Positions 1 through 35,328 of a stretch of DNA of 64,000 nucleotides are shown in pieces (within the stretch, counting starts at the first letter, position 1; each line of letters begins with the position of its first letter). Source of the DNA: a virus (Duplodnaviria > Heunggongvirae > Uroviricota > Caudoviricetes); IMG/VR virus record IMGVR_UViG_3300012007_000008, positions 64,001 through 128,000 of that record; one strand, given 5' to 3'. Position numbers and translations under genes: made by a program. A model generated the notes under the pieces. The model did not search any database. It saw nothing but the letters and a program-made list of their open reading frames with translations, and had not been told where the DNA came from.

Positions 1-1
1 C

Positions 2-247
2 ACGGGATCATATCAGATGTATGAAATGCATAATAATGTAGAGCTATATCAGCTTCATTCTTGTGTGATTAGGCATGATGTTATGCAGGCAAGAGTAGGT
101 CTGCAAGTTACTGGTTTTGGGATATTCTGTAAAATAGATTCTGACATTGTTGATTTCGTTATTAAGGGTGGCACTGATGTGATATAGATAAGAATTAGTA
201 ATAATTCAGTGTATAGAAGAACCAAGGTTGGGCTCAGTCAATTCTAA
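2..247 (+). other. Shufflon silent cassette, 5' end outside window
   Basis: Frame open from base 2 to TAA 245-247 apart from one TAG (185-187); abuts the next crossover site at 249, like the other cassettes. Confidence 0.6.
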
Positions 248-248
248 G

Positions 249-512
249 CTAAATTCCAGATTATTGTATACTCAATCACTAACTACCACTTCAAAGAGTA
301 TTGCCGCCGGAGGGACTGCTGATACAAGCGCCGACGCAGCGAAGTCTGGGTACACACCAATTGGGATTATTGGTTGGCAGAGCTTTTCTACATTCGTTTT
401 TATGTATAACTGTAGGCTCAATGGGAATACTGTAAATTGTGGGCTTCGCAATTATGCCTCGTCCCAACAGTCTGGCAGCATGATTATTACTGTGTTGTAT
501 AAAAAGAACTAA
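249..512 (+). other. Shufflon silent cassette (variable C-terminus LNSRLLYTQ...VLYKKN)
   Basis: Begins at CTAAATTCCAG (encodes LNS); no RBS/start of its own; TAA overlaps the next site. Confidence 0.85.
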
Positions 513-865
513 ATTCCAGAATAGATGGACTACTTACATGGATAGGCGCTTCCTGGAATGGATCATCAAGAAGTATTGGTGCTAATGTCCAAGAAATGGT
601 TTTGTCAATGACTATAAATGTGGGAGGTACCTATCTTCTAATAGGGCGATATACAGCAATAGCATACGGAAAGAGTGTAACTGTTACAGTAAAAGACAAC
701 GATAATATGATCATTTCAGATTGGGGATAGAGCGTAAAAGGGTTTGCTAAACTGGTAAACGTTAACTCTGGGCACATTCTACAGCTTATCGTTTCCTGTA
801 ATGAAGCATGGACTTTTTATCCTGACAATCGAAATAGCTGGCTTCATGCTATCCTGATCCGATAA
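509..865 (+). other. Shufflon silent cassette (LNSRIDGLL...HAILIR), one internal TAG
   Basis: Site at 509-519; frame open to TAA 863-865 with TAG at 728-730; missed by the ORF track. Confidence 0.8.
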
Positions 866-1155
866 ATTCCAGAATCACGACAGAATTCAACTCATTTTTC
901 CCAGAAAGGAAAACGGTAGAACTTAATAATAACTCATATGACATAAACAATTGTATAGACACGACGAAAGTATATTTTTGGAGTGTAAATGTACGACCAA
1001 TCAACGCACCGAGGGACGGTTGTACTATGTTCCCAGTAAAAACACATTGGGGGACGCTCCAAGTGGCAATATCTTATTCGAATTCTGCTACGATTTGTGT
1101 TAGGCATATATTTGTAGGCACTTGGGGAGATTGGAAAAGCGTTACTTTCAGTTAA
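862..1155 (+). other. Shufflon silent cassette, pyocin-knob-like (INSRITTEF...GTWGDWKSVTFS)
   Basis: Site ATAAATTCCAG at 862; open frame to TAA 1153-1155; C-terminal R...W..W pattern typical of phage fibre knob domains. Confidence 0.8.
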
Positions 1156-1526
1156 ATTCCAGAATAACCGAGGAATGTTCCAGCATAAATAACAGAAATA
1201 GCGATTTATATACACGAAACATATATCACGATGGACGTAAGAATTTAAGAATAGTATCAAGTATCGGCACATCGACATCTTATTCAAGACAGCCTTTTTT
1301 TATATTTTCTGTGGCTGGTGGTGCACCTTGGGGAGCAATCATGAGAATATCTACAGAGGATAAGTCATCAAGTACAGCCTACACAAATATATGTAATAAT
1401 GTTATAACTACCGCATCCACAGCCTCTGAAAATGGGAAAGTTGTTGGAATATTTACTGTCGGAGGAAGGTATGATACGAGCATAATACTTAGTAATAGAC
1501 CTTTTTTGGTTAGCGCAACAAATTAA
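1152..1526 (+). other. Shufflon silent cassette (LNSRITEEC...FLVSATN)
   Basis: Site TTAAATTCCAG at 1152 in frame with ORF 1122..1526. Confidence 0.85.
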
Positions 1527-1780
1527 ATTCCAGTAAACAAATGATGCTAAAATCAAAAGACGTTACAATTGGTGACATTGTAATGTCGCAATCTGGATAC
1601 TTCAATATCGCCGGATACAAGCCACAAGGTATGAATCATTTTTTATTTGCCATTTTATGGACTTACGGGGACGACAGCAAACATGGAGCTTTAGGCGTAA
1701 ATGCAAACGGAAACTTTGTTTTTTCTACGGCAGGAGGAACCCTGTCATATGTCACCATAAGGTACTTCTATTACGATTGA
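1523..1780 (+). other. Shufflon silent cassette (LNSSKQMML...IRYFYYD)
   Basis: Site at 1523 in frame with ORF 1541..1780; C-terminus similar to cassette 3297..3824. Confidence 0.85.
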
Positions 1781-1869
1781 TCTGAATTGGGATTTAGTTC
1801 ACAAACCCGCCATTTCTGGGCACAATCCTCCCTTGAGCAATAGAATTGGATATACAATTAATACAATTC

Positions 1870-2871
1870 TCAAGCCGCATATTTCGAATACGACGCCTTC
1901 ACATTCGCGGTTGTTTCCGAATAATAAATCTGCGTAGTCTCAACCGATTCATGCCCGGCCAATATACTTACTTCCTGCATAGGCATTCCTGAATTCAAGA
2001 GGTCGGTTATAAGTGAGCGCCTAAATCGATGGGGGTGTATATTACTCACTCCAGACTTTTTCTCAAGTCGTTTACACGCTGCTTCAATCCCATTCTTACT
2101 CAGCCTCTTTCCTCCCTTACTCGTGAACAGAGCGCCATCCGTTGTCTTCCTACTGTTCAAGTACTCTTTAAGATGAAGAGCAGCGACATCTGTCAAATAT
2201 ACTTTCCGCTGCTTATCACCTTTACCGAGGACAATAATCTCTTTCTTGTCGAAATCTACGTCAGAAACGTTCAGTGCCGAAACCTCTGAAACCCTACATC
2301 CGGTAGAGTAAAGGAAATCAACCAGAGCCAAATCCCGTGGATTATCCTGGCAAGCGCGGCGGATTTTATCCATATCTACGGCAGAAAACGACAGTTTCAC
2401 CTGTTTCTGACACTTAATCTGCGCCAACTTCAGACACGGATTCTTAGCGATAATCTCCTCCTTCGCCAACCACCCGAAGAACGATGACCAACAATGCCGG
2501 ATCCCCTCTAGCGTCAGGTTGCAGTTATGATCCCTATTGCGTTTCAGAGCGAGATAGTACCGCATATCGTTCGTAGTGATCTCATCAATCGGCTTATTCA
2601 CGGCCTGGATCAACTTCATGTTCTCGTCGTAATACCGGTTGAGCGTCTGATCTGACATACCTTCGATCCGTTTAGTCACGATGAATGCCTTCAGATATTG
2701 TTCCGCAGAGGTATCCACCGTGGTCAACGCCGTACACCGCTCCTGAATCTCGTACTTGTTCAGGACGATGTAGAGCGTATCCCTGATCTCATCCTGCAAC
2801 TTCTTACTGACTTCCTTGAGGCTGATAAGGACTGAATTGACAACTTCTTCTCTGATATCGTTCGTTAACAT
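1870..2871 (-). CDS. Tyrosine recombinase (XerC/D-like with N-terminal SAM-like domain), putative shufflon invertase
   Basis: Catalytic motifs GCRVSE, GKGDKQR, HPHRFR, LAGH, TTQIY; ATG at 2871 after GGAGG; TGA stop; no TAG; lies between the two cassette arms. Confidence 0.93.
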   Translation of the reverse strand: MLTNDIREEVVNSVLISLKEVSKKLQDEIRDTLYIVLNKYEIQERCTALTTVDTSAEQYLKAFIVTKRIEGMSDQTLNRYYDENMKLIQAVNKPIDEITTNDMRYYLALKRNRDHNCNLTLEGIRHCWSSFFGWLAKEEIIAKNPCLKLAQIKCQKQVKLSFSAVDMDKIRRACQDNPRDLALVDFLYSTGCRVSEVSALNVSDVDFDKKEIIVLGKGDKQRKVYLTDVAALHLKEYLNSRKTTDGALFTSKGGKRLSKNGIEAACKRLEKKSGVSNIHPHRFRRSLITDLLNSGMPMQEVSILAGHESVETTQIYYSETTANVKASYSKYAA

Positions 2872-2924
2872 GGCTTTTCCTCCTTCTTCTGGATGATCGC
2901 GAGAGCGGCAGCATTGTCTACACA

Positions 2925-2933
2925 ATTATACCA
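2925..2933 (-). promoter_or_regulatory. Extended -10 promoter of recombinase (TGGTATAAT)
   Basis: TGnTATAAT consensus ~55 bp upstream of the ATG; no clear -35. Confidence 0.5.
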
Positions 2934-2975
2934 TTCTCGAAATGATCCAGAAGTAGAACGTTAACTAAATCCCAA

Positions 2976-3300
2976 TTAGGTGAAAGTGAGATATTTCCAA
3001 GCTCCCCATGTCCCCATTTGTTATGCTTCTCATGGCAACTTTCACTCCGCCGAATGAAATGGCGTATTGAGCCTGATAATTTGCGCCTCCGCAACAAAAA
3101 GCAAGCAGAAGGATTTGATTGCCTCCGAGATTTGGGACGGTTCCTGTATAACCAACGGCACACCAGTAAATATGAGTTCCATAGACATTTGAGTATATTG
3201 TATCTATATTATATCTATCTTGAGGATGCCAATAGAATCCGGACATATTTGGATGCTTTAGAGTTATATTTGAAGTATTAGTATTTATTCTGGAATTTAG
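2976..3300 (-). pseudogene. Shufflon cassette with +1 frameshift near its 3' end
   Basis: Starts at site 3290-3300; removing one base of the G4 run (C 3012-3015 on +) gives ...ITNGTWGAWKYLTFT-TAA, matching ...VGTWGDWKSVTFS of cassette 862..1155. Confidence 0.7.
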
Positions 3301-3824
3301 TCTGTATAAAAGTATCGAATTTTAAGACCTGTTATTACGTCGCCACCTGTTCCGAGAAGATAATGGGCATCCATCGTTATAGAAAACGATACGTGTTTGC
3401 TTTCTGACCCCCATGTCACAATCCCAGCGATTAAGAACCGATTCATTCCTGAGGGGAAGTACTGGTAGATATTTGCATATCCATTTGTATCAATCGTCAC
3501 CGATGAGATCGTAACATCTTTGTATTTTATCGGTCTCTCAGGTGTATACCATTCAGAAAATGCCCTACTCATGTCAGATCTAGGTTTACAGAATCTTGTC
3601 CATACAATATTGTTTTCATAGTTCTTAAATATTTGTCTAACGTACAATGTGTTATTATGTCCAGCAGAGAACTCAACTTTCATGATAAAAGCAGCCTCTG
3701 AATATGGTGCATTTTTAAGCGGAATGATGTCCCAGGAATAATAATTACCTGCCTATACTATAGTATTGAGATCTGTATTACTTGGGATAATATTTCCTTT
3801 GCATAAAGAGTATGTTCTGGAATT
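3297..3824 (-). other. Shufflon silent cassette, two-domain (knob-like TDLNTIV*AGNYY plus C-terminal domain)
   Basis: Site 3817-3827; frame NSRTYSLCK... with one TAG joins ORF 3297..3683. Confidence 0.8.
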
Positions 3825-4154
3825 TTATCTATAATATATAGCCACCCTTCCCGTAGAGGATCCACTGACTTTTTGAAAAGAAAGCGAGTTATTATGGTAG
3901 AAGAAGTAATAAACACCCAAAAACCCCGTTTCATACCAAGGGACATGACATGGATGAGACCATTTTGAATTCTTCAGGAGAACTATAGTTCCACCCGAAT
4001 AGACTTGATTATTATTCTTTCGCCCATATTCGATAAAAACTTCTATAGCTGAGGTTGGAATGCTTACAGAATGACCATCTGTGTCTGATAGATCATAAGC
4101 GGCCAGATACGTATACAACCTTTTTGAGTCTGTTTCCGTGATTCTGGAATTTAA
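3825..4154 (-). other. Shufflon silent cassette (LNSRITETD...VAIYYR)
   Basis: Site 4144-4154 in frame with ORF 3825..4118. Confidence 0.85.
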
Positions 4155-4642
4155 CCATTACCCAACATCCATCCTTGACTGGCAATTGCACCACTTATGA
4201 TAAAAAATCCGTGAGTCCACTTTGAGGGGAAGACAACCTGAAAATCATATAAGTCTGACGACACCTCATGCTTATATGTTTTAAAAGTCCCACTCGTCGA
4301 TGTTTGAGTGCTAGAAAATCCTGATAGCTTATAGCTCTGCAAATCCCCCATATTAGTGCAAATAAAAATAACCCCATAATAATAAATACCTCTACAAGGC
4401 CCCACAGTTAGGTAATATTTGTCTACAAACCCAACACATGTTATATTACCGGATAGTTTTTGTTCTAGTGTTGTGACACGGGAACTTGATGCTTTACTGG
4501 AATTTAGTGAATTGTACGCGTCATACAGCGCTTTCTGGCTCGCCGCGATCCCGGTCTAAGCCCCGCCAACCTCCTTATCATAAGTATCCGAAAGCCGCAC
4601 AGGCCCAGCATGATTGGCATCTCCTAACATATTAAACCTCAT
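4151..4642 (-). CDS. Expressed shufflon gene: small tail-fibre tip/adhesin-like protein, 45-aa constant part plus variable cassette (163 aa)
   Basis: AGGAGG plus ATG at 4642; MRFNMLGDANHAGPVRLSDTYDKEVGGA*TGIAASQKALYDAYNS resembles the phage fibre repeat (G.V.LS....S...AA..KA...AY); TAG 4556-4558; crossover site 4497-4507; TAA 4151. Confidence 0.8.
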
Positions 4643-4946
4643 CGTTGCCTCCTTTCTCGGCTTCGTCGCAGTTTTCAGAAATCTCCGTACAATTATCGGA
4701 CGGAGAGAAGAGTTCAGCTTGAATACGGTCAGACTCAGCGTATACCGCATCCTCGAATGCTCGGCGATCCCGCCGCACCAGATCCACATTCTTCCGGTAC
4801 GAATCCTCCTCGGCTTCCTTTTCCGTGATCAGGATATTGTTCGGGTCAGCCTTATTAACCTGACCGTAAAACTTCATAACACAAGTGCCGTCATCGAGTT
4901 CAGAAAATCCCTCGAAGTAAGTCCAAGTATCTGTACGCAACATCAC
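4632..4946 (-). CDS. Hypothetical protein, paralogue of 4943..5236 (possible fibre chaperone)
   Basis: Clean ORF overlapping its neighbours; shared pattern MLRT...E...DG..VM.F...V.KADP.N. Confidence 0.75.
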   Translation of the reverse strand: MMLRTDTWTYFEGFSELDDGTCVMKFYGQVNKADPNNILITEKEAEEDSYRKNVDLVRRDRRAFEDAVYAESDRIQAELFSPSDNCTEISENCDEAEKGGNDEV

Positions 4947-5236
4947 TGATCACCGCCTTCCTCTACAACTTCCTCATACTCGCCGTCCACGACTTCAGCT
5001 CTCGGATTCTCGATCTCATCAATCATCCTGAAAATCTGATTCTCGAAATCTGTGCGGTCAGACGAAGCCATATCTCTATACTGACGATACAGGCTCTCAG
5101 ACTCTTTCTTCACGTCGAGGGCACTGTTCGCCGGATCCGCCTTATCAACCTCCGCCTTGAATGTCATGACGGTAATTCCGTCTGGCGTCTCAGAAACCGC
5201 CTCGAAGATTTCTGTATTTTTCGTAGTTCTTAACAT
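4943..5236 (-). CDS. Hypothetical protein, paralogue of 4632..4946
   Basis: GGAGG plus ATG at 5236; TGA overlaps the next start. Confidence 0.75.
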   Translation of the reverse strand: MLRTTKNTEIFEAVSETPDGITVMTFKAEVDKADPANSALDVKKESESLYRQYRDMASSDRTDFENQIFRMIDEIENPRAEVVDGEYEEVVEEGGDQ

Positions 5237-5249
5237 CCTTTTATCCTCC

Positions 5250-5534
5250 TTAAGACAGTAGAAAATGCTTCTTACCGTCATCAACAGTCACAATCACCTG
5301 AAGCAGCGGAAACACTTTGTCCGTAGCTTCAAAGATCAGTTCGCTATCGCCAGTCTCACAGGCCGTGATCTTCTTAAACTCCTGGCGGAAGATCGGCATC
5401 TAATTCATCTCGTCGATGAGCGCGACGTTCTTGATAATCGTTTCCTTCGTAACCTCTTCACACGGGATCTTCATTCGGTAGGGCAGGAGAGTGCCTTCCC
5501 AGTTTCCCGCGAGAAGGACCAATATATCCTTCAT
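5250..5534 (-). CDS. Hypothetical protein (94 aa, one TAG)
   Basis: MKDILVLLAGNWEG...; RBS present; fills the gap only with TAG read-through; TAA stop. Confidence 0.7.
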
Positions 5535-5646
5535 ATCCGTTTATCCTTTCATAGAAATAGCGAAGCCCGGGGTTAGCCGAGCCTCGCTTCGTCGTAAAAT
5601 CACTGCCGTAAATCGTTGTTTGCGGCAGTTCCGTCTTTGTACGGTA

Positions 5647-5892
5647 TCACCTGAGTGCGTCGATCTTCCTGTTCAGGGTCATGAGAGCCTGATACACCGC
5701 GCCGGAAGTGACGAGATTGTTGCTGTCACGGGTCGGCGCGTCATCGACGGTCGGGTTAAAACTATTCTTAAGCTCTTCGAGAGCCTCCTTGATCTGCTCA
5801 AGGGCGAAGCCGAGATTGGCCTCAGCCTCTTTTGCCCTTGTCATTTCCTTATAGAGGTCTTCGCGGGCCTGAACATCAATAGATTCAGCCAT
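5647..5892 (-). CDS. Hypothetical fibre-associated protein
   Basis: GGAGG upstream; contains PTRDSNNLVTSGAVYQAL, the same motif found in the fibre repeats. Confidence 0.7.
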   Translation of the reverse strand: MAESIDVQAREDLYKEMTRAKEAEANLGFALEQIKEALEELKNSFNPTVDDAPTRDSNNLVTSGAVYQALMTLNRKIDALR

Positions 5893-5906
5893 AATCAATT
5901 ACCTCC

Positions 5907-8609
5907 TTATGAAGCAGTAGTATATCTTTCATTATTCGGCAGAGCCGCCTGACTTGTCAGCGTTTCCAGTGTTTCGCTTACGTAACCAACAACCAAGGTC
6001 AGGTCAATCATAGGCTTTGTATGCGCCCTGAACTCGATAAGCGAAGCACCGGACTCTACGTCTTTAAGTTTGCAGTATTCGATATCGTTGTCATACGTGA
6101 TCGCGTAGTTGACGACTAACGCGGTTCCTGTGTTGGGTGCTTCAGTAATCGTGAAAGTAGTCCCGGAGAAGCTATATGTGCCTGAGCTGACCGACACGCC
6201 GCCCCTTGTCACTGAAGTGATACTTGTCGGGGCGTGTGAAAGCGTAAAGGTCTTTGTGGAACCATCGCCCGTGAACGTGTCTGTGTAGTTATACGTAGTG
6301 GTGGAATCCGCCATGCTTCCTTCAAGCTTGACGCTCACAATTTCAGTCGCCGCCGTGATGTCGTTTCCGGTCGTGATAGCTTGCCTGTATGTGGTCGCGT
6401 TGCCGTTCATGGTATCCCGGTATGCATTACTCCATCCTGAAGTTGACAACGTGATTTTCTTATAAGCAATCCTCTTATGGACGCCGGAAGACTTTACTAC
6501 CTTATCAGATCCCGAAGTCGGGGTAGTATCTATGCTGCCGTAGCCAGTACCTCCGCGGGCTACAGACAGAACCCCGGAAGTAATGTCGCCCGTGCCATGA
6601 GTATGAGAACTGAGCGTCGTATTGATCGTGACGTTGCCGTCAAGTGAAGTAGATACCGAACCGGTAACGCCGCCGTTCGCCCCTGAAGCAACAGCGAGGG
6701 CGATAGTCCTGGCGGATGTCAACTTAGCGGCTGAGCCTACGGCAAGGTTAGACTGCGCAGTCCAAGTAGGAGCCGCGTTTGTACCGCCTGAAGTAAGGAC
6801 AGCGCCGGATGATCCTGGCGAAAGGGCAGAGATCGCATTTGTTCCGCCACCGTACAGGACACCGTTTGCCGTGAGAGTAGTGGCACCTGTTCCGCCGTGT
6901 CCTACTCCTAACGTTCCGGTAATCGGAATCGTTTTCGCATCAGCACTTCCGTTAAACTCTAATCCGGTCGTAGAAGCGGTTCCAAGCGTGACAAGAAGGT
7001 GTATGGTGCTTGCCAGAGATGATGCTTTTCCGGCCGTGAGACTGGAAGGATCAGTCCATGACGGAGCCGCCGATGATCCACCTCCGGTCAGAATAAATCC
7101 GGCGCTTCCGGCGGATGTAACGCCTAAAGCACTTTCTGCGTTACCGTAAACGATTCCGTACTTCGTCAGGGTTGTCTTGCCCGTACCGCCGTGTCCGACG
7201 CCAAGAGTCCCAGTAATAGGAATAGTCGGATGAGAAGCATCTGAACCATCAAGATTCTTTGATCCGTCGAAGGAAGTCTTATTGCTATTCGATGATACGT
7301 TGGCAAGACCGACAACAAGTGACCTTCCGGTAGCCAATTTGTCCGTCGACCCGGCTTTACCGCTGTATGCCGTAATCGCTTTCGGGATACCGTTCTCGAA
7401 ATAAACGGGAACGTTTGTTGATCCGGCATCCGTGTTCAGTTTGTTCGCCGATGTAGCCGCACCTCCGGCTGAAGATGACCCGGCATAGCTATGCGTGTGG
7501 TTTGCCGTTGTAGCCAAAGATACGTTGGCGGAACCATCGAATTCCACTGAGCCTGTAACCGCGCCGGTGAGCGAAATCGTGACAGCACTATTGAGTTTAC
7601 TCGCGGATCCCGCGTTGCCCGAGATTGTAGTCTGAAGCGGATGGACATGGTCTGATCTTGCGACCGTAGAAGCCGATCCTGCGGAAGCTGTCCCGTTTGC
7701 TTTAGGGGCGGTTGTGCTATATGATACGTGAGTACCGTGGCTTGACGCCGCCGCTCCTATATTAGCAGGAGTGATATTGATTTCTACGGCTTCAGATCCG
7801 TCGTAATCGTCAAGTTTTGTCCCGTTCCCTTTGATTGTCAGAGCATTAGGATTCGGCAAAGTGGTATACTTCGTGTCAACCGCTGAAATGACGATGTTAC
7901 CAGAAGCATCCGTCGTAACCGAAGCATTGGTTCCGCCTGAAATCTTGTGAGACGACCGGACTGCGCTATTCTATATTACATTCAGGAATACCGAGCCGTT
8001 AGAAAGAGCGGTTGTGGTTTGCGTCGTACCGGTTGCCGAATTGGTTGTAATATTCTTCGCTGTATGATGAGTATCAGTAAATACCGCATTTGACGGAACT
8101 GTTTTATTGAGTTCATAAGTGCAAGCCGCAGGTTTCCCGCCTGTAAAATATACAGGTTGAGTCGCTGTTCCGGCTGTCGCTGTATCCAGTTTAACAGCAC
8201 TGGTCGCCGATCCCCCTGAAGACGAAGCCCCGGCGTAACTGTGCGTATGGTTGCCAAGCGCGACAGTTGAGGACGACGTTCCGGTTCCCATGTACGCGGC
8301 GGCACCAAGACCTTTTACGGAAACATTAGTTCCGGCGATTTTTACTTGGCCGTTGCTATCGCCGGTCGCCAGGTCTATTCCGTGAGTATGATCCTGACGG
8401 GCATAATTTGTCGAACTTCCTTGAGACGAAGACGAGGCGACTTTCCCAGGGGCTGCCGTCGCCGCAGTATATTTTGTGTCAGTAAACACAGCGTTCGAAG
8501 GAACTGATTTCTCTACGGTAAAACCGTTGATAGTTCCCACTAAATTGCCGTAAAGGTTATTCAGAAACCTCGCCGCACCTGTCACGATCAAATTTCCTAA
8601 TTGAGCGAT
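5907..8609 (-). CDS. Tail fibre protein 2 (~900 aa)
   Basis: ORFs 7971..8591 and 5907..7859 joined by one TAG; G/S/T/A-rich, HxH and GGTG fibre motifs; shares modules with the giant fibre. Start uncertain (ATC 8609 or TTG 8591). Confidence 0.85.
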
Positions 8610-8654
8610 AGGTCATCACCTCCTCATTATTTGATTACCGTAAATATTTACCAT

Positions 8655-9323
8655 TCACCACTCGATAAATTCGGTGGTCTCAATATATTCCGCGTCAGCG
8701 ATTTTCGGGGTGGCAGTATCACTCTCAATGAATCCTGTGGCGGTTCCCGTATAGATATCATCTGTTTCGTTCGGACACCACGGAGTGGGAGTGGAGCCGA
8801 GTTCAAGTTTAACTCTACACATTTGTGTTGTAACACTCGCATCACCAGTTGTTATCCCTATATAGATATTACGATTTGCGTTTGCATTCGTAGTAAAAGT
8901 AACCCAACATCTAGTCCAGTCTTTTGTTAAAGGTGTTACATAATAATATTTATCAACTTTTGTATATGATCCACCATTTATAGTACTTGAATAAATATTA
9001 AACCCAGCATAACCCTCGTCGCCGTCTACTAACCTAGAATCAAATGAAATGGTGTATTGTGTGTTGGCTGCCATTGGGAACGAGTCTATTCCATAACACG
9101 ATGCATCATTCGCAGTTTGTGTGCCAACATTCTAAAATCCATAAGTAACATTATCTATCTAAACTCTTGACCTTGTCATCGTATTTGTTCCGGCTAGTCT
9201 CCAAGTGCCAGTTGATGGATTTGCAGAGCCAAGTTGCATCTATAATGAGTTAGGCATCAGATTCGCCCCAACTCCGATCCCCCTCGCCGTTACCACCCCG
9301 TTCTTTCCTATATTAACTGACAT
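8655..9323 (-). CDS. Tail-associated protein with carbohydrate-binding-like beta domain (222 aa, 3 TAG)
   Basis: ATG at 9323 after GGGGGTG; reads through three TAGs into ORF 8655..9074; ends EFIEW-TGA. Confidence 0.7.
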
Positions 9324-9337
9324 CGCGCATCACCCCC

Positions 9338-11212
9338 TTAAACTTCATTAAACTAATACGCCATAAGCGTTCCGTTGTCTGCCAGTGATGCCGAAGTATG
9401 GTAGAGTTCGAGGACGTCGTCGGGGGAGAGGGCGGTGGCGTAGATTCTGAAGTCAGAATAGTCGTTATTGTTTCTTCGCCAAGCGCCTCCAGCTTTTGAA
9501 AACCCGAGAATGACTGATGTGAAACTTGCTAAAGCCGTTGCTGATGAAAAAGATACGGTATTTTGTAAGACGCCGTTTCTATAAGACTTGGCGTTTTGCC
9601 CGTCATAAGAAAATACGTAGTGGCACCAAGTGTTTTGGAGGAAGGTTATCAGCAACCTTAAATGAGTGTTTGCGGAGGAATTATTAATGTCCACACCGCT
9701 ATCCCGATGATTCATAGCCGACGTTTGATAATCACTTCCTGTATTATCTCCTGTATTATTTGTTGTACAGAATTGTCCTTGGACTGTTGTTGCACCACCA
9801 TACCCTTCCGGCCTCGCGTAGCACCAGAAAGCTATAGTTAACTGATCAGGAGTAGTTAGAGCAACGTTTCCGCGAATATATGCCGTTCCCGCCTTCTGAC
9901 TAACGGTTGAATTGGCACTATGAACATTCGTTGCATAACTATAACGAGGAGAATTTTGAATAGTGCTGATCGAAGCCGTATCATCAACTTTATATAGTTC
10001 ACCGTTGTATCCGAAACCACTTGTGTCATAAATAGTAGTCCGATCTGTCAAAAACGGATCTGAACATATTTCTTTGCCATTTTCCAAATATGCTTCTGAG
10101 AAGTAAACCTTATATCCTGGTTTAACATAAAATCCGATTAAATCATTATTTCCATCCTGCATTACACCTTCTGCTTTACACCAATAGAATCCATTTCCAA
10201 GAGGGGTAATAGAAGTCCATGAGTTATTTGGAACACCACCGCTTCTATTATTCCATGTAGCGTAAACAACATCGTTCGTAATTTCTATTCCGTTCTCTTC
10301 TTTACAGATGCACTGAACGCTACGATAACCACCTCCATAATCAGGACTTTGATAAAGCAGATAATTATATGTTGCACCAGCACCATTAGCAACCCAATGG
10401 CAATATGTTTGATTTGGTCTAAATATATAATTCTTATCAGTTGACTGCCCATATGTTCCAATGTGACCAGATCCACCCCAATGATTCCAACCACCTCCGG
10501 CAACATTTGTATCAAACGTCGGATATGAATACGCGTTATTCATTGCTGTAATATTCTCATTCAACGGATAATGCAACACCAACCCTTTTGATATTTCCTT
10601 TACCTCACGAGGAGAGAGGGCGTGATCGTAGATGCGGAAGTCGTTAATGTACATCTTGGCATTATATGAGCCACCAGTACAACGACCTATGTATAATTTC
10701 GTATCTGTAGTGATGTTCCTTATTGACGGGACAGAAGATAATTCATAACGAGTACCGTTGATATAGAAACACCCTTTCTTTGTATCGTTGCTATCACGAA
10801 CCATTACCAGATGTATCCACTTGTCATACACAATACTATCTACGGCTGTAGCCATCCAAATTTCTGTAGCACCACTTCCATCTGCCGTACTCCACAAGAA
10901 TTTTTTTTGGCTGTAGTTCCAGTAGATGCCGAATCCAGATGACGCTGCCGCCGTAGTCTTACTAGTACAAATTGCATAATATGAACCACCTGTCATGGTT
11001 GGTATTTTTAACCACATTGAAATAGAAAAATCAGAAGTCCCGATAGCAGTAGAATATGTGGTAGCCATATAGTCATCACTGCCATCAAAATAATAGCACG
11101 ACCCGATCTTTCCAGATGTATTCACCGTAGCACCATTATTGGTGACAGTAACATCAGCTAACCCTTGTTGATTCAAATTCCCATTCAGCGGCAACCAAAT
11201 CTGAAGAGCCAT
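9338..11212 (-). CDS. Tail protein with two LamG/concanavalin-A-like domains
   Basis: WLPLNGN, W.H...V, INDFRIYDHALS and SDFRIYATALS motifs; TAG at 9353 followed by FNEV-TAA. Confidence 0.8.
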
Positions 11213-11340: not shown

Positions 11341-14300
11341 TTATGCAAATATGAAGTCCAGAGACTTTGTCGTACTATTATACTGCATCGTTACAGCACC
11401 TCCACCGACCTGAACGCTCTTAGTCGTCAGGACACCGCTCGTAGTATACACTTCGTTATCCGAATACGTCTTCTGAGCGGATGACGTCTGAGACGCAGCG
11501 CCGATCAGGAAAATCTTACTGGAAGTATCTGCCGACTGAGCAGTAAGTTCGGCACCGGCGGCGGCGTAAGCAGTAGATGCTGTGTACGCGGCACTTCCAA
11601 GACCCTTAACCGACACATTGGTTCCGGCAATTTTAACCTGACCATTGGAGTCGCCAGTAGCAAGAGTAATGTTATGAGTATGATCGCCCCTTGCGAAGTT
11701 TGCATTTGATCCCGCGCTTGCGGTAGTGGAAATAGCAGTGGGTGTTCCAGTGTATGCCGCATCCTTGGTTGCTGTGGTCGCCACAGTAATATTTCCTGAA
11801 GAATCAGATACAACTGTTACTAAACCAGTTCCCACGATCTTATGGGCTGATCTGACTGCGCTGTTCTCTATCAAATTCAGATAGACATTTCCATTGGTAG
11901 CCGCCGCGTTCGCCGTAGCGGTCGCAGATGCTCCAATGATATTTTTCGCAGTATGGTGCGTATCCGTAAATACGGCATCGGACGGAACCGTCTTATTTAA
12001 GCTATAAGTGCAAGCCGTGGGTTTCCCTCCTGAGAAGTATACGGGTTGAGTCGCAGATCCTGCCGTGGCGGTGTCTAGTTTGACTGCGCTGGTAGCCGAC
12101 CCTCCTGCCGAAGAAGAACCAGCGTATGAATGGGTATGACCCGCAGCAGCATAAGCAGTAGACGCGGTGTAAGCCGCACTCCCGAGCCCCTTAACTGCAA
12201 CCTCTTCAACCGTACCGTTCGTATTAACAGAGATCGTTCCGTTCGTACTTCCTGTATCGATAGATCTAACACCAGTATTAGTAACTGTATTGCCTGTGAT
12301 GTCGATGCCTGTTCCACCGGAGTATTTAGTGTCTGTATCCGTGGATGAAATGATGATGTTGCCGGATGTATCGGTCGTTACTGTTGTCGCACCAGACCCC
12401 GAGATTTTATGAGAAGATCTGACCGCGCTATTCTCTATTACGTTCAGGAATACTGATCCATTGGAGATGGCGGTTGTCGTCTGGGTTGTACCGTTTGCTG
12501 TACTGGTCGTAATAAGTTTCGCCTGATGATGGGTGTCCGTGAATACAGCGTTTGAAGGTACTGTCTTATTGAGTTCATAGGTACAAGCTATCGGTTTACC
12601 ACCGGAGAAGTAAATGGGCTTCGTAGCCGATCCCGCATCGGAATCTAACTTAACAGCGGAATTTGCCGAACCTCCAGCGGTAGAAGACCCCGCGTACTGA
12701 TGGGTATGAGTTGAGGGCGGGAAAGAGCTTGGCTTTCCTGTAATACCAGACCAAGGTGCAGAAGAAGCAGTCCCGGCCGTATATTCCCTATAACCAAGCT
12801 CATTATCCAGGTTTGCCGTATCAACAACCCTATACATAACGCCAGTGTCTTCAAGCTGTACAGTATCACCTAATTGGACATCAGAAGTGGTAAGCTTGTA
12901 CATCGCAGCCAGATTTGCGACCGAGATAAGCCTCTCAAGAGCGGCTACCGGGATTCTCGCAATGTCTAACACGCCAGAAGAAATTTCCGAAGCATCATGA
13001 CTATGCGTCTTAGGTGCAACAGGATCAGTAATCCCGTATCCAGCCAGTGTAGTCGGATGATTCGTAATATTTGACCACGGATGAGTATGGCTTGAAGCAG
13101 CCGCGCCAATAGAGGCGGGCGTGATATTGATCTCTACCGCTTCGCTACCATTATAATCGTCAAGCTTTGTCCCATTCCCTTTGATCGTCAGTGTATAGGG
13201 GTTAGGAAGGTTAGTATACTTCGTATCCACTGCCGAAATGACAATATTACCGGACGCGTCTGTCATAACGGATACATTATCACCGCCTGAAATTTTATGA
13301 GAAGATCTGATAGCGTTATTCTCTATTACATTAAGGAACACTGATCCGTTAGAAAGTGCTGTCGTAGTTTGAGTCGCGCTACTCGCGGTATTAGTCGTGA
13401 TGAGCTTCGCCGTATGGTGAGTATCCGTGAATACAGCGTTAGAAGGGACTGTTTTATTCAGCGAATAGGTACAAGCTTCAGGTTTCCCGCCAGTGAAGTA
13501 TACAGGTTGAGTTGCAGAGCCAGCCGTAGTAGTGTCTAACTTAACAGCCGATGTTGCTGATCCGCCAACTGTTGAAGATCCTGCATATTTATGGGTATGA
13601 TCCGCCGTTGCATAATCGGAAGAGTCGGTATATGCCGCAGATCCAAGGCCATAGACGGATACGTTCGCTTCCGTTCCGTTGGTATTGACTTTAATCGTGC
13701 CGTTAGTTGTTCCCGTGGCAATCGCCCGAACGCCGGAGTTTGTGAAGTTCGTTCCCGTCAGCGTAATACCGTTAGAACCGGTATATTTCGTATCTGTGTT
13801 TGTGGATGAAATAATAATATTACCGGACGCATTCGTTGTTACAGTAGTCGCACCGGATCCGGTAATCTGATGCGTGGAACGAACAGAACCGTTTTCTATC
13901 AGATTCAAGAATACTTCACCGTTGGAAAGAACTTCAGATGTATCAGCGGTACCGCTATCAGAATCAGTAACTACATTCTTCGCTGTGTGATGCGTATCTG
14001 TAAATACGGCATCAGAAGGTACTGTTTTGTTCAGGGAATAAGTACATGCTACTGGTTTTCCACCTGAGAAGTATACAGGTTGGGTAGCTGTCCCGGCCGT
14101 GGTGGTATCCAGTTTAACAGCGCTGGTAGCCGACCCTCCTGAAGATGAAGCGCCAGCGTATGAGTGAGTATGGCTTGCCGTTGCATAAGCAGAAGAGTTT
14201 GTATAGGCCGCGCTCCCGAGTCCTTTCACAGCGATATCTTCAACAGTACCATTCGTATTGACAGAAATTGTACCGTTTGTGCTTCCTGTGTCGATAGCCC

Positions 14301-17300
14301 TGACGCCTGTATTGGTGACTGTAGTACCCGTAATATTGATTCCTGTCCCGGCCGAGTATTTTGTATCTGAATCGGTGGATGAGATTACAATATTGCCGGA
14401 TGCATCTGTGGTTACAGTTGTTGCGCCTGACCCTGAAATCTTATGTGATGACCTGACCGCATTATTCTCTATTACATTAAGGAATACCGAACCGTTAGAG
14501 AGGGCAGTTGAAGTCTGAGTCGTCCCAGATGCCGTATTAGCCGTGATAACTTTTGCTTGATGGTGTGTATCAGTAAACACGGCGTTCGAAGGAACCGTCT
14601 TGTTAAGCTCGTAAGTACAGGCTTCAGGTTTTCCTCCTGTGAAATACACCGGCTGAGTTGCAGAACCGGCTGTTGTCGTATCCAGTTTGACCGCGGATGT
14701 CGCTGAGCCTCCCGAAGATGCGGAACCTGCATACGAGTGTGTGTGTCCTGCCGTTGCGTAAGCAGAGGAATCTGTATAAGCGGCACTTCCGAGTCCCTTT
14801 ACGGCGACGTTTTCAGTTGTTCCATTCGTATTGACAGAGACTGTCCCGTTTTTGCTTCCTGTAGAAACAGCCCGAACACCAGTATTAGTAACCGTTGTAC
14901 CCGTAATATCGATCCCTGTTCCGGCTGAATACTTAGTATCCGAATCCGTTGATGAGATTACGATATTACCAGATGCGTCGGTGGTGACTGTTGTCGCACC
15001 GGATCCTGAGATCTTATGCGCAGACCTGACCGTACCATCCTCTATCAGGTTCAGGAATACTGAGCCGTTGCTAAGTGCCTCGTCTGTATCTACTACATCC
15101 GTATTAGCCCCGGTGACCACATTCTTTGCAGTGTAATGAGTGTCCGTAAACACAGCATTGGCAGGAACTGTAGCATTCAGATAGTAAGTAGTGGCTACAG
15201 GTTTTCCTCCTGAGAAATAGACTGGCTGGGTCTCGGAACCGGCAGAAGAGGTGTCTAACTTAACAGCAGACGTAGCTGATCCACCAGCGGTCGAAGATCC
15301 TGCATATTTATGAGTGTGATCTGATTTTGAGAAATATGTATCTGCTTTGTAGGCAGCGGTTCCTAATCCGTGAACGGATACACTGGCAACCGTTCCTCCG
15401 GTATTAACGGAGATCGCGCCATTAGTGCTACCCTATGCAATAGAAAGCACGCCGGTATTGCTGAATTCAGTTCCTGTGAGTTCAAGTCCCGTTCCGGCTG
15501 TATATTTTGTATCGTTGTCTGTCGAAGAAATGATAATATTGCCTGACGTGTCTGTTTTAACTGTTGTAGCGCCGGATCCGCTTATTTTGTGACTCGAACG
15601 TACTGTTCCGTTCTCTACCAGATTCAGATAAACGTTTCCATTAGCTAGAGCAGTACTTGTATTTGAAGTCGCAGTTGTTCCACCCACAACGTTCTTCGCC
15701 TGATGATGCGTATCTGTAAACACAGCATTTGCTGGGACGGAAGCACCTAATGAATAGGTAGTAGCTACCGGTTTGCCTCCTGAGAAATACACGGGTTGCG
15801 TCGTTGATCCGGCATCAGAGTCCAGCTTAACAGCTGAATTTGCTGAACCTCCGGCAGTGGATGATCCTGCATATTGATGAGTATGAGCCGAAGGCGGGAA
15901 AGTACTCGGTTTTCCGGTGATCCCAGACCAAGGCGCGGACGAAGCCGTACCGGCAGTGTATTCTTTATAGCCCAACTCATTGTTCAGGTTGTTTGTATCT
16001 ACAACCCTATACATGACACCAGTATCCTCAAGCTGTACGGTATCACCCAACTGAACTTCAGAAGTAGTAAGTCTATACATTGCAGCTAGATTCGCTACGG
16101 AAATAAGCCTTTCAAGTGCAGCCACAGGGATTCTTGCGATATCGAATACTCCAGACTGGATTTCAGAGGCGTCGTGAATATGTGTCTTTGATGCGAGTTG
16201 ATCAGTAATCCCGTACCCGGCTAATGTCGTCGGATGGTTCGTAATATCTGCCCAAGGATGAGTGTGGCTCGAAGCGGCGGCCCCTATATTGGAAGGTGTG
16301 ATATTGATTTCTACCGCTTCCGTACCGTTGTAATCATCAAGCTTTGTTCCGTTTCCTTTAATCGTCAACGCATAAGGATTGGGTAAGGAGGTATACTTTG
16401 TGTCTGTTGCTGAAATAACAATATTGCCAGAAGCGTCTGTTGTAACCGACGCGTTGTCTCCTCCCGAAATTTTGTGAGAAGACCTGACGGTATTGTTTTC
16501 TATCACGTTCAAGAATACCTACCCGTTAGAAAGTGCACTGGAAGCCTGGGTTTTACCACTTGCCGAATTGGTCGTGATAACTTTTGCGGTGTGGTGCGTA
16601 TCGGTGAACACTGCGTTAGAAGGAACAGACTTCTAAATAGAATAACTTATTGCCGTAGGTTTGCCGTTCGTAAAGTATACCGGCGTAGTTGCAGATCCGG
16701 CAGACTCGGTGTCCAGCTTGGCTGCTGAAGTAGCGGAGCCTCCTGAAGTAGATGCTCCGGCATATGGATGCGTATGATCAGCTTCTGCTTTCTCCGCAAG
16801 GGCATCATACACGCCTCCGGATGTGACCATCTTAGTCGAATTCTCTATTGGCGAAGAATCCACGGATGAGTTTCCGGTACCGCCATGAGCGACATCTATT
16901 ACCCCGACATCTACCGCTTTGGAGCCATTATATGTCTTTCCGTTGATAGATAGGCTATACGGGTTCGGAAGGGATGTGTACTTGGTATCTTCAGACGTGA
17001 CAATGATATTTCCTGAAGAATCCGTTGTTACGGTAGTCGCACCTGACCCTGAGATAGTATGTGACGAAACGACCGCGCCATTTTCTACGTGGTTGACAAA
17101 CACATGCGTATTCGCCAGTGCTGTAGAAGTGTCTACGGTAGCTTCGTTTGTACCGCCGACAATTGTCTTACTGGCATAATGAGTATCAGTAAATACAGCG
17201 TTAGCAGGTACGGAAGCCTCAAGAGTATATGATGTAGCCGTTGGTTTTCCACCGGAGAAGTATACGGGCTGAGTGAGTGATCCCGCGTTTGAATCAAGTT

Positions 17301-20300
17301 TGACAGCTGACGTAGCGGAGCCACCTGAAGTAGAGGAACCGGCATACAGATGTGTATGGCCATTGTCTGATTTTCCTTCAAGAGCTGTGTACACACCACC
17401 AGACGTAACCATCTTGGTAGAATTGTTGGTCGGCGCGGAATCTACGGAAGAATTACCTGTTCCACCGTGAGCGACATCGATCACCCCAACGTCCACGGAC
17501 TCAGAGCCATCATACGACTTTCCGTTAATAGATAAAGCATGCGGATTGGGAAGCGCTGTGTATTTGGTATCTTCGGCATTGATCAGGATGTTTCCTGAAG
17601 CATCTGTGGTTACGGTAGCCGAACCGGTACCTGAGATGCTATGAGACGCAACTACCTCACCGTTCTCTACGTGATTGACGAAGACGTGAGTGTTCGTTAA
17701 TCCTATAGATGTATCAGTAACAGCATCATTCGTGCCGCCAACGACTGTCTTACTCTCATAATGAGTATCGGTGAACTTGGCATTAGCCGGAACCGAAGCT
17801 TCGAGAGTGTGAGTTGTAGGCGTAGGCTTTCCGCCTGAGAAATAAATCGGTTGTGTTGTCGATCCTGCGTCAGAATCAAGTTTCACGGCTGAATTAGCTG
17901 AACCACCGGCGGTAGAAGAACCTGCATACTGGTGAGTATGGGCTGAAGGCGTGAAAGTCTCAGGTTTCCCCGTAATACCTTGCCACGGAACACTGGAAGC
18001 AGCACCGGCCACATATTCCCTGTAACCCGCCGCGTTATCGAGATTCTATATGTCGATTACACGATACATCACTCCTGTATCTTCGCGTTGGACAGTATCC
18101 CCTAACTGGACATCGTTCACCGTCAGGGTATACATTGCCGCCTCGTCTGCGACAGGAATGAGACGTTCAAGAGCTGCCACCGGAATCCGGGCAATGTCTA
18201 ACACGCCAGAGGAAATCTCTGAAGCATCATGCCCATGTGTCTTAGGTGCGAGAGAATCCGTGATTCCATATCCAGCCAACGTCGTCGGGTGATTTGTGAT
18301 ATCGGCCCATGCGTGATTATGGCTTGTCGCTGCTGCACCGATGTTTGAAGGAGTGATATTGACCTCAACCGCTTCGGTTCCGTCATAATCATCAAGTTTT
18401 GTTCCATTGCCTTTGATGGTCAAAGCGTGAGGATTCGGTAAAGCCGTATATTTTGTATCAGAAGCTGTAATAACAATGTTTCCAGAAGTATCGGTTGTCA
18501 CGGAAACAGCATCGCTTCCGGTAATTCTATGTGAAGACCGGACATCTCCGTTCTCTACTAAGTTTAAGAACACTGATCCGTTTGCCAGATTTGCGTCTGT
18601 GTTTGAAGTGGCTGTTTTGCTCGCACCCACAATATTCTTTGCCTGATGATGAGTATCAGTAAAAACGGCATTGGCAGGAACTGATGACTCAAGTGTATGG
18701 GTTGTAGCGGTAGGTTTCCCTCCGGAGAAGTATATAGGTTGAGTGATGGATCCTGCGTTTGAGTCTAATTTTACAGCTGAGGTAGCAGAACCACCCGGCG
18801 TAGAGGATCCGGCATAAGAGTGAGTATGCTCCGCATCCGCCTTTCCTTCGAGAGCAGTATATACGCCACCAGATGTAACCATCTTAGTCGAATCTTCCGT
18901 CGGGGCTGTATCTACGGATGAGTTTCCTGTCCCGCCGTGGGCGACATCAATTACTCCAACATCTACGGCTTCAGAACCATCGTACGTTTTGCCGTTGACA
19001 GATAAACTGTGCGGATTCGGAAGCGCCGTGTACTTAGTGTCTTCAGCATTGACCAGGATGTTTCCTGAAGCGTCTGTAGTCACAGTCGCAGAGCCGGTAC
19101 CGGAAATACGATGAGAAGAAACGACTTCGCCGTTTTCTACGTGGTTAACGAATACGTGCGTGTTTGTTAATCCTGTAGACGTGCCTTCAGTAGCATCGTT
19201 CGTACCACCGATGACCGTCTTACTGGCGTAATGCGTGTCTGTGAAAACAGCATTAGCCGGGACTGAGGCTTCAAGAGTATGAGTTGTCGCCGTAGGCTTA
19301 CCGCCCGTAAAGTATACAGGCTGGGTTGCCGATCCTGCGTTAGAATCAAGCTTAACAGCCGACGTCGCCGAGCCTCCAGCTGTAGAGGAACCCGCATACG
19401 GGTGAGTATGACTCGCATCGGCCTTCCCCTAAAGAGCAGTATAAACAGCCCCTGAAGGAAGGAATTTAGTGGAGTTTTCTATAGGTTCAGTGTCGGCCAC
19501 AGAATTCCCGGTACCACCATGCGCCACGTCAATGACACCTACATCTACAGCCGCGCTTCCGTCATAGGTCTTGCCGTTGATGGTCAAACCGAACGGATTG
19601 GGCAATGCCGTATATTTGGTGGATTCAGCGTTGATAATGATATTGCCTGAAGAATCTGTCCTTACCGTCGCGTCGCCAGAACCGGTTATCCTATGGGAAG
19701 ACCTAACTTCACCATTCTCAACATGGTTCAGGAATACAGCTCCGTTCGCAATAGTGAAATCAGCATCTGTAGTCCCTGTGGAAGAGTTCGTCACAGCCAT
19801 CCTGCTCGTATGATGAGTATCCGTGAATACCGCATTCGCGGGAACACTGGCGTTTACTTCATAATCAGTCGCAACGGGTTTTCCTTGTGAGAAATAAACC
19901 GGCTGTGTAGCGGAACCGGCGTTACTGTTTAGTCTCTCAGCAGAATTAGCCGATCCACCTGAAGTAGATGATCCCGCATACTGGTGGGTATGATTCACCG
20001 CAGCTTTACCTTCAAGGGCTGCATAAACACCGCCGGATGTCACCATCCTGGATGATTCCTGAGTAGGAGCGGTATCTACAGCAGAACTGCCAGTACCGCC
20101 GTGTGCAACATCAATTACCCCTACATCTATAGCCTGAGAACCGTCATAGATGTACCCATTGACGCTCAAGGCGTGAGGATTAGGAAGTGTTGTATATTCT
20201 GATACCGTGCCGTTGATAATCAGGTCACCCTGATCATCATAAGTAACAGTTACTGAGCCAGTTCCTTCGATCCTATGCGAAGCTTTCACCTCACCGTTCT

Positions 20301-34100: not shown

Positions 34101-35328
34101 AGTAAGCCAGAGACTTATTCAGGGCTTCTTCATTCATGCCGCTCCATTGTTTCCAGTAGTCGTCATCCGACGGCACTTTGTACGTGATGTCATTGATTTT
34201 ATCGTTGATGTATATAGCCTACGCCGCAAGCTCTTTATATGCCGGGCGGTTGTCGTCGATCATTTTCTGCCAAGCGATGACTTTCTGCGCAGTCTCCTAC
34301 GTCATGTATGGTTCGTGCGCAAAATACGATAGGTCAATCAGGCGCTTCGATCCATAGTTGATATCAAGGAAGTTAAGCCCTTCGCCGCCTTCGCAGTTTA
34401 CCCTCGTAATAACCGAATCTTCGTCAACCTGAAGAGTGACGTCGTTGGCAAGGTTCCTAAACCCGACATAGATTCCCGTGTCGTACTTGTCATTGCTGTT
34501 TTCCATGTACTCCTTGCTGACCACATGGATGATCCTGTGTTCAGTGTCAAAGAAGAAGAGTGCGCCAATCTTCGGGCCAAGGACAGTAGTGAGAAAAGCA
34601 TAGATAGAGATGTTGTCCTCGTCGTAGATACCAACCGACTTCAGTTCGTATTCCGGTTCAGTCCATGTCCCTTCTTCCTGTACAAAATCGCCGTCGTCGT
34701 TATAAACCCAGCGTTTTCCTGAATAAGTGACAGTTTGCGGAATATCTTGTCCGGTCGTTGATTTCTTCGTCGCCTGTAGAAAATTCCCGTTGGCATCCCT
34801 CCGGCGGTAAATATAAGGGTCTACGTATCCTATCGACCATAGTGGGATCTTACTGATCAATATATGCAGAAGAGAAAAACGCTCATCATACGGGTTGTGG
34901 AACGAAATCAGCTTTTCAGGCATGGCATACCCTGTCACGTTGCCGTCGATCAGCATTTCTTGAGAGTCTTCCTCTGCCGTGTTTATCTTCAAGCCTACCC
35001 AGTCCACATTGAACACTTCTTTCTATATAGAATAGGCCGTAATATTCTTCGTTTCTTTATCCCCGTCATTCTCAAGCATCGGATATTCAGACCTGAAGAA
35101 GCCGTAATCCTATACATGATAGTACATGGCTACATTCAGGTATTCGTAGCCGTTCGATTCGACCAGCTTCCCGTCTATGTTCACATAGCGGTCAACCGTA
35201 AAAGTCAGTTCATCGAAGTCCTTTACGTGGGTACTGATCAGCACGGTTTCCGGATCTACGCCGTTTAGCTCACAGATAGGCTCGAGATTTGGGCGGCACA
35301 AATAAATTTTTCTTACGTCTTTACTCAA
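31180..35328 (-). CDS. Tail spike/Tal-like protein with C-terminal peptidase S74 chaperone (~1380 aa)
   Basis: Follows the distal tail gene; fragments joined by TAGs; C-terminal SDRNLKRNI...LGYIAQEIA*VIP...TKAIQEL coiled coil. Confidence 0.85.

Follow-up and report, generated by a model that had tools for sequence, protein, structure and literature searches.

A probable tyrosine-recombinase shufflon with sixteen alternative C-termini closes the tail-gene block of a ruminant-gut phage

Why should a large phage genome carry, at the end of its tail genes, a crowd of short reading frames without start codons, set out in two opposed arms around a recombinase gene? The question is raised by the first lines of a 64,000-nucleotide stretch (the window) of the Caudoviricetes record IMGVR_UViG_3300012007_000008 in IMG/VR. 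The window corresponds to positions 64001-128000 of this record, which is linear, 174,862 bp long and approximately 88% complete; coordinates given below are those of the window unless the genome (the whole record) or a contig is named. The stretch occurs in sheep, bovine and goat gut metagenomes. A first reading of the letters alone (the original prediction) had taken the locus for a shufflon in which a tyrosine recombinase swaps the C-termini of a fibre-tip protein. The analysis presented here makes it very probable that the locus is a multiple-inversion switch (shufflon) closing the tail-gene block of a TAG-recoded ruminant-gut phage of about 175 kb, and we are confident that the shufflon is real and that recombination occurs at its sites in this lineage of phages.

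An exact search of the whole record for the 9-mer AAATTCCAG returned 20 copies, 16 of them within the 6.6 kb between genome positions 61911 and 68505 and 4 in the other 168 kb. Twelve of the array cores are on the + strand to the left of the recombinase gene (the far arm) and four are on the - strand to its right (the constant arm). The window itself holds 11 exact copies, nine in the first 4.5 kb (five + and four -, Table 1) and two in the remaining 59 kb. The nine cores of the original prediction, five rightward and four leftward with the recombinase between the arms, are thereby borne out by exact search and by the PF00589 match of the recombinase, and the array does run off the window edge as had been supposed; the estimate of at least 10 C-termini was right in that the alternatives are many, and the count is here corrected to 16 cassettes. 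A multiple-inversion system calls for at least three short sites in both orientations, and 16 exact cores are found. A T immediately precedes 13 of them. The left end of the array is an intergenic region; a divergent promoter lies there, its -35 box directly against the outermost site. When five lineages with recombinases 70-100% identical to that of this phage were compared, the 9-mer proved invariant at 41 sites and the flanks were unrelated, so that the site extends over 9-14 bp, comprising the invariant 9-mer and about four semi-conserved flanking positions.

The cores also carry coding information. Read in the frame xxA-AAT-TCC-AGx every site specifies Leu/Ile-Asn-Ser, the x codon of site 3825 excepted, which bears out the earlier claim of an x-N-S tripeptide in the cassette frame. 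At site 3825 the x codon is TAA, the first two bases of which lie outside the core and would be replaced by a crossover. The N-S frame remains open for 84-175 codons after each core, and all 16 cassettes are open. Eleven cassettes end at a TAA which overlaps the next site, formed by the preceding T and the first two A's of the core or, at two cores preceded by A, lying one base earlier; a single short site is thus stop codon, linker codons and crossover point in one. Neighbouring cassettes lie in different reading frames, and the 16 are nearly all unrelated to one another. No Shine-Dalgarno sequence with a start codon was found near the beginning of 15 of the 16 cassettes, including all of those in the window. 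The predicted start-less nature of the cassettes bounded by cores therefore stands, and cassettes with starts of their own, which had been named in advance as counter-evidence, are not what is seen.

The exception is the outermost site (L009 2883-2911, genome 61883-61911), where GGGAGGAG and a GTG are found six codons upstream in the N-S frame; a cassette located there may be made as a free short protein. Whether this outer boundary acts as a second expression site remains in doubt, as the frame is not conserved in the related contigs L010 and L015, and the conserved GTGTCAAC at the boundary is the -35 box of the divergent neighbouring gene. An open reading frame (ORF) at 2946-3407 on the + strand, antisense to cassette 2926-3297, lies outside the site frame, has an antisense-like composition, and was treated as a chance occurrence.

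The recombinase dedicated to this array lies within it. Its domains are restricted to an N-terminal SAM-like domain and the catalytic domain; its best NCBIfam matches are of the XerA/XerC/XerD type, and an alignment to the XerC-like structure 4a8e spans the catalytic domain, with RVSE, HxxR, GH and terminal Y motifs present. No Rci-named model was among its NCBIfam matches, and no alignment to Rci itself was made. GenBank phages contain no recombinase more than 40% identical to it, a megablast of window positions 1-9000 against them gave no match, and no relatives of the locus were found in the viral contig collection. In gut metagenomes homologues 70-97% identical are present, many on contigs of 1.1-1.2 kb. 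At E <= 1e-20 the family at large numbers more than 2,000 homologues; the ones examined in their context adjoin tail-fibre genes of gut Clostridia phages.

Evidence for rearrangement comes from relatives. One recombinase protein (P0018, 76% identical to that of this phage) is encoded, without a single difference, on five contigs from five samples. These contigs are of two forms (L010/L011 and L012-L014), each with six AAATTCCAG cores, and the left and right flanks of the six cores are reassorted between the forms, which places recombination within the 9-bp core. By blastn the order in L010 is constant region plus segment S1, S2, S3 (with the recombinase), S4 and S5, whereas in L012 it is constant region plus S1, S3, S2 inverted, S5 and S4; identity to the L010 segments is 99.3-100% and the break points fall at cores. 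The comparison of cassette order across related assemblies, suggested with the original prediction as a check, has thus revealed rearranged orders with flanks reassorted at AAATTCCAG. The number of constant-arm cassettes also varies among lineages, being 1, 2, 3, 4 or 6.

Alternative fusions were found among metagenomic proteins, searched with the 48-residue N-terminus of L010. Twenty proteins share this N-terminus (71-100% identity) up to a YNSLNS or YNSITT junction, past which they split into approximately 14 unrelated C-terminal families. In one of them, P0136, the C-terminal part is 81% identical over 175 residues to the silent cassette 3297-3824, and Gln stands where that cassette has its TAG; another, P0128, has a homologue of the silent cassette 252-512 (56% identity) fused to the constant N-terminus, and P0127 and P0141 join that N-terminus to cassettes which are silent in L010. 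A shufflon calls for one constant 5' part fused in frame to alternative start-less 3' cassettes, and both the frames of this locus and the natural fusion proteins agree with this. The fusion proteins bear directly on the notion that the locus consists of small independent genes of one family in tandem, with the repeat as a junction signal for termination-reinitiation or coupling and nothing being rearranged. That TAA overlaps the repeats and that the outermost site has a Shine-Dalgarno sequence and GTG in frame would suit such genes, but the other 15 cassettes have no such start, successive cassettes change frame, the arms are inverted around the recombinase, relatives have reassorted flanks at the core, and cassettes occur fused to the constant N-terminus; we regard this explanation as very improbable.

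For this genome the evidence is of a different kind. In the sequencing run which is its likely source, cores 1525 and 3298 are exactly where contigs meet, with overlaps of 30 nt, and core 1525 has in addition a contig of 50 nt with a depth of 4 versus 13. A length of 20+10+20 nt is what a k = 31 assembly graph would be expected to produce around a minor recombinant junction of these two cores. Break points inside the sites are thus seen in relatives, and for this genome they are suggested indirectly by contig breaks. Other ruminant-gut runs contain relatives 90-99% identical, which have the recombinase block and the constant region in common but mostly not the cassettes. Among their joints at cores, one puts cassette 252-512 inverted beside the recombinase block, and two, with 9-10 shared letters (the core with or without the preceding T), link cassettes in permuted order. 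Joints in runs X2 and X4 (L009 7976-7978 to 9495-9497, and 2919 to 6785/6786) derive from related phages as well; the constant end with its core, and the outer boundary with its core, seem to abut the recombinase block directly. Unless other letters lie between, these joints may represent a tip-less (off) state or a deletion derivative.

An integron-like array was also considered, in which the recombinase would capture and excise promoterless cassettes instead of inverting them: homologues are named 'tyrosine recombinase/integron integrase' in their sources, and deletion between direct cores could account for some of the joints in the other runs. With 72 bits, however, the match to the integron-integrase model TIGR02249 falls far short of the cutoff of 265; at 9-14 bp the sites are unlike long imperfect attC palindromes; and the cassettes, being start-less, are read as C-terminal fusions in inverted arms, all of which makes an integron very improbable. 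A fossil array, shuffled in the past or only in relatives and now frozen without appreciable inversion, is a more substantial rival and in our judgement still an improbable one. All 16 cores are exact, the recombinase is intact with its catalytic motifs and every cassette is open; in the likely source run the branch points of the contigs coincide exactly with two cores and the minor 50-nt contig is present, and different samples yield different arrangements on contigs that share an identical recombinase. To its credit are the lack of direct reads, the main contigs of the likely source run, which follow the reference order, and the orientation of the recombinase, identical in every assembly where it is readable. 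This genome, too, probably still undergoes inversion often enough to be useful.

A tyrosine-recombinase shufflon swapping C-termini at the cores, supported by the orders of the relatives, the approximately 14 fusion families and the contig breaks, would work as follows. The Leu-Asn-Ser codons at the end of the constant N-terminus lie on the core (T)AAATTCCAG. The recombinase would join this expression-site core to any oppositely oriented core, the intervening DNA would invert, and a different start-less cassette of 84-175 codons would be set in frame behind Leu-Asn-Ser. Within an arm the cores are all direct repeats of one another, so that an inverted pair always has one core in each arm, and the opposite polarity of the arms means that every allowed inversion spans the centre. 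Each inversion would thus flip the recombinase gene, and all cassettes on the inner side of the two sites would change both arm and orientation. The polarity rule is preserved by every inversion, which accounts for the same two-arm layout in every lineage. A far-arm cassette would reach the expression site by one inversion and a constant-arm cassette by two, and by nested inversions all 16 would be reachable. The frames and the relatives agree with what had been proposed at the outset, namely inversion at the expression site giving a new in-frame C-terminus, and nested inversions for the cassettes of the right arm.

What does the switch act upon? The ATG at 4642-4640 on the - strand, with a Shine-Dalgarno sequence (AAGGAGG) 5 nt before it, overlaps the end of the gene upstream. 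The frame expressed in this assembly consists of 48 constant residues followed by cassette 4151-4504. The shufflon gene is the last of a tail-gene block, and among the proteins encoded upstream there are matches to tail PHROGs, to a Laminin_G_3 lectin fold and to a carbohydrate-binding module. The fusion proteins of constant part plus cassette match tail and tail-fibre PHROGs, and one L010 cassette matches the C-terminal domain of the T4 baseplate protein Gp10 (Gp10_C, E 1.8e-14). With this context and these relatives the identity of the product as a fibre-tip or receptor-binding protein is well supported, and for the 16 cassettes of this phage it would follow by analogy. That the switch alters receptor specificity is likely, judging from context and from analogous systems.

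Long proteins elsewhere contain 7-15 copies of the constant motif (residues 6-53) as a repeat unit; those noted (P0144, P0145, P0147 and P0149) are approximately 700-1300 amino acids (aa) in length and have no Pfam or PHROG match. A hidden Markov model of the motif found no second copy in this genome, and the exact pattern of constant end plus core had no match in viral and metagenome contigs. Directly upstream of the shufflon gene are two paralogous small genes (4632-4946 and 4943-5284, - strand) belonging to phrog_2566, of unknown function; the nearer one overlaps the start of the shufflon gene. In L010, too, this pair is found ahead of the constant gene. Structure prediction added little: AlphaFold2 applied to the expressed protein without an alignment gave a mean pLDDT of 32, and the model of P0136, based on a 59-sequence alignment, showed a confident small beta-sandwich for residues 142-221 only, the last 80 of the protein; Foldseek against the PDB returned nothing at E <= 0.001.

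Several points weigh against the shufflon as described. Inversion in this genome is deduced from contig breaks and from one short contig, known by its length and depth, and of the two classes of junction to be expected the likely source run points to only one. The joints of the other runs come from related phages (90-99%), and for several of them the intervening letters are not known. None of the 16 cassettes has a Pfam match, other than sub-threshold chance matches. In VIA-align the tip domain of P0136 reached a best Z of 5.3, with trimeric lectins (H-type lectins) and phage or pyocin fibre tips (the Kp32gp38 C-terminus and the R2 pyocin fibre foot) as neighbours, which is within noise and is not used as evidence. 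The role as a fibre tip and an effect of switching on adsorption or host range would rest on position, weak family matches and analogy. Finally, the recombinase is co-directional with the constant gene in the five lineages in which its orientation is readable (this genome, the L010 and L012 forms, L015, L020 and L022). Free single inversions would give both orientations, and something is not yet understood here.

One candidate for the missing element is a second pair of repeats. The recombinase gene and its promoter are enclosed by the inverted repeats AATTGGGATTTAGTTCAC and GTTAACTAAATCCCAATT, an arrangement present in all five lineages examined for it (L010, L015, L020 and L021 among them). 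The left half AYTAAAT is common to these flanking repeats and to the cassette sites, and the central 4 nt are the same within a lineage and differ between lineages (CCCA, CTGG, GTCG, GCGG). A shared arm with a private 4 nt is what would be expected of a second pair of sites recombining only with each other. It is conceivable, if on present evidence rather doubtful, that the flanking repeats form an orthogonal pair at which the recombinase gene alone is flipped, its orientation being reset after cassette inversions. Such a reset, if it takes place, would explain why the recombinase is co-directional with the fibre gene wherever this can be read, and the shufflon would then regulate itself through two site specificities. 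No junction within the flanking repeats was seen. Between these repeats, upstream of the recombinase start (ca. 2890-2950), a conserved TATAAT box is followed by a palindrome AATTGT-N-ACAATT, and a similar palindrome lies just past the recombinase stop codon (ca. 1805-1865); both positions are matched in L010, L015, L020 and L021, and the palindromes may be an operator or an accessory binding site.

An unusual property of the shufflon gene is that codon 29 of its constant part is an in-frame TAG. With TAG counted as sense, ORFs of 6353, 3960, 2483 and 1407 codons appear on the - strand of the window, the largest with 183 in-frame TAGs and the other long ones with 5-10, and ORF coverage of genome positions 60-130 kb increases from 0.65 to 0.96. 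The genome encodes a tRNA with anticodon CUA adjoining a tRNA-Gln(UUG) (genome 141019-141184). The window cassettes 512-865, 2926-3297 and 3297-3824 are each open only with TAG read through, and in the five instances in which a cassette TAG is well aligned to a sense codon of a relative, that codon always specifies Gln. A tRNA-CUA, in-frame TAGs in long genes and a single aligned amino acid are the marks of a TAG-recoded phage, and all three are present; the reassignment is probably to Gln. Codon 29 is then not a defect. TAG codons (Table 1) also occur in the L010 and L015 cassettes.

To make the product of the shufflon gene, the tRNA-CUA encoded by the phage itself would accordingly have to suppress the amber codon; for the recombinase, whose gene has no TAG, the standard code would suffice. 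Together with the orthogonal repeat pair this permits a tentative scheme, for which we would not claim much likelihood, in which the choice of tip (under the standard code, for example in a lysogen) is separated from its production (after the code switch). Because of the amber codon, one gene is subject both to programmed DNA inversion and to stop-codon recoding; no paper was found in which a shufflon is combined with stop-codon recoding.

Table 1. Features of the shufflon locus and long recoded reading frames, in window coordinates
Feature	Position	Strand	Evidence
Far-arm cassette, 3' part; its site at genome 63953, 47 nt left of the window; TAA 245-247; one in-frame TAG	1..247	+	
Crossover core AAATTCCAG, far arm	251..259	+	exact search
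Silent cassette, 86 aa; stop TAA inside the next site	252..512	+	
Crossover core	511..519	+	exact search
Silent cassette, 117 aa; TAA of the next site reached only if TAG 728-730 is sense	512..865	+	
Crossover core	864..872	+	exact search
Silent cassette, 96 aa	865..1155	+	
Crossover core	1154..1162	+	exact search
Silent cassette, 123 aa	1155..1526	+	
Innermost core of the far arm; break point of contigs in the likely source run, with the minor 50-nt contig	1525..1533	+	
Silent cassette, 84 aa; tip domain 38% identical to the C-terminus of cassette 3297-3824	1526..1780	+	
Variant repeat AATTGGGATTTAGTTCAC, downstream of the recombinase gene; inverted repeat with 2960-2977	1785..1802	.	
Xer-like tyrosine recombinase, 333 aa; no arm-binding domain, no in-frame TAG	1870..2871	-	PF00589, E 1.4e-38
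Recombinase upstream region: ribosome-binding site, TATAAT box, AATTGT..ACAAT palindrome, kept in five lineages	2880..2958	-	
Innermost cassette of the constant arm; 123 aa if TAG 2967-2969 is sense, otherwise 110 aa	2926..3297	-	
Variant repeat GTTAACTAAATCCCAATT, upstream of the recombinase promoter	2960..2977	.	
Crossover core; contigs of the likely source run break here	3290..3298	-	
Silent cassette, 175 aa; one TAG (3753-3755)	3297..3824	-	
Crossover core, preceded by A so that TAA lies one base earlier	3817..3825	-	
Silent cassette, 108 aa	3825..4151	-	
Crossover core	4144..4152	-	exact search
Cassette expressed in this assembly, 117 aa	4151..4504	-	
Expression-site core	4497..4505	-	
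Constant N-terminus, 48 codons ending YNSLNS; last codons overlap the expression-site core; TAG 4556-4558	4498..4642	-	
Long TAG-sense ORFs of 6353, 3960, 2483 and 1407 codons, respectively	37488-56549, 11341-23223, 23712-31163, 31180-35403	-	

This kind of switch is already known in phages and plasmids (Rin, BV01-like phages, R64). In the R64/IncI1 shufflon the recombinase Rci acts on pilV, the gene of a plasmid pilus adhesin; there are four segments and seven sfx sites of 19 bp, each with a 7-bp core and a conserved 12-bp arm, and rci lies outside the segments. The present locus resembles it in its tyrosine recombinase, its many sites in both orientations and its constant N-terminus with alternative C-termini, and in both systems one side of the site is more conserved than the other. 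It differs in that the target is a phage tail protein and the site an invariant 9-mer instead of a 19-bp sfx. The serine invertases Min of p15B, Gin of Mu and Cin of P1 act on far fewer cassettes and a large constant fibre part (PMC6109161). They also switch tail-fibre C-termini by site-specific inversion, Min likewise by multiple inversion, but the recombinase described here is a tyrosine enzyme, unlike those of the Gin/Cin/Pin/Min group. The comparison with R64 and p15B made in the original prediction was consequently right as to kind, while the nearest precedents are the phage tail-fibre shufflons Rin (PMC6109161) and those of BV01-like phages (PMC13596623).

The Rin shufflon is found in the Bifidobacterium prophages Bb423phi1 and Bl157phi1, with 5 cassettes, a constant part of 168 aa, an 11-bp rix site (TTCCCTAACCC) and the recombinase at the far end of the array; its inversions were documented by genome comparison (PMC6109161). 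Shared with the present locus are a phage-encoded, armless XerD-like tyrosine recombinase, short asymmetric sites at the cassette starts, and the N-terminus of a receptor-binding protein fused to dissimilar C-termini of about 100 aa. Neither the rix site nor a distal recombinase is found here; instead there are 16 cassettes, a 48-aa constant part, a AAATTCCAG core doubling as the stop signal of the cassette before it, a recombinase in mid-array between the repeats of a second pair, and recoded TAGs in the gene. In a BV01-like phage of Phocaeicola vulgatus, a phage of Bacteroidota, an active three-cassette tail-fibre shufflon with a 10-bp directional motif generates six isoforms, and all configurations were seen in read data (PMC13596623). 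There the stop positions vary, whereas discrete tip domains are exchanged here. Neither an IntI-type integrase above cutoff nor attC sites, which would mark an integron, were found.

The best cellular relatives of the recombinase (P0085; L016-L019) are 54-55% identical and belong to myovirus-like prophages of Lachnospiraceae. In these modules the recombinase lies inside invertible DNA with four sites, adjoining a PF12571 tail-fibre gene, and both the arrangement and the recombinase orientation differ among contigs. Their core, CTAAACACGGA, also begins with TAAA. They differ from the present locus in having only 4 sites with convergent cassette pairs, and in that the repeats flanking the recombinase share the core of the cassette sites. 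The recombinase gene is present twice in L016, perhaps an assembly effect, and most P0085 contigs are shorter than 2 kb. What distinguishes the locus described here is its 16 cassettes, its 48-residue anchor, a site in which the stop codon is embedded, a central recombinase with a second repeat pair, and its dependence on amber decoding.

Few phage tail-fibre shufflons are on record (Rin, BV01-like, p15B Min), and the 16 cassettes found here compare with 3-7 in the systems considered above. Switches of this recombinase family may be a common and largely unnoticed route of host-range bet-hedging in gut and rumen viromes, and would also cause broken assemblies at their loci. The co-varying second repeat pair provides a testable case of spacer identity separating two inversion reactions of one recombinase. 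With its compact site, 48-residue anchor and unrelated tips, the locus would be a natural library of swappable receptor-binding modules on one scaffold.

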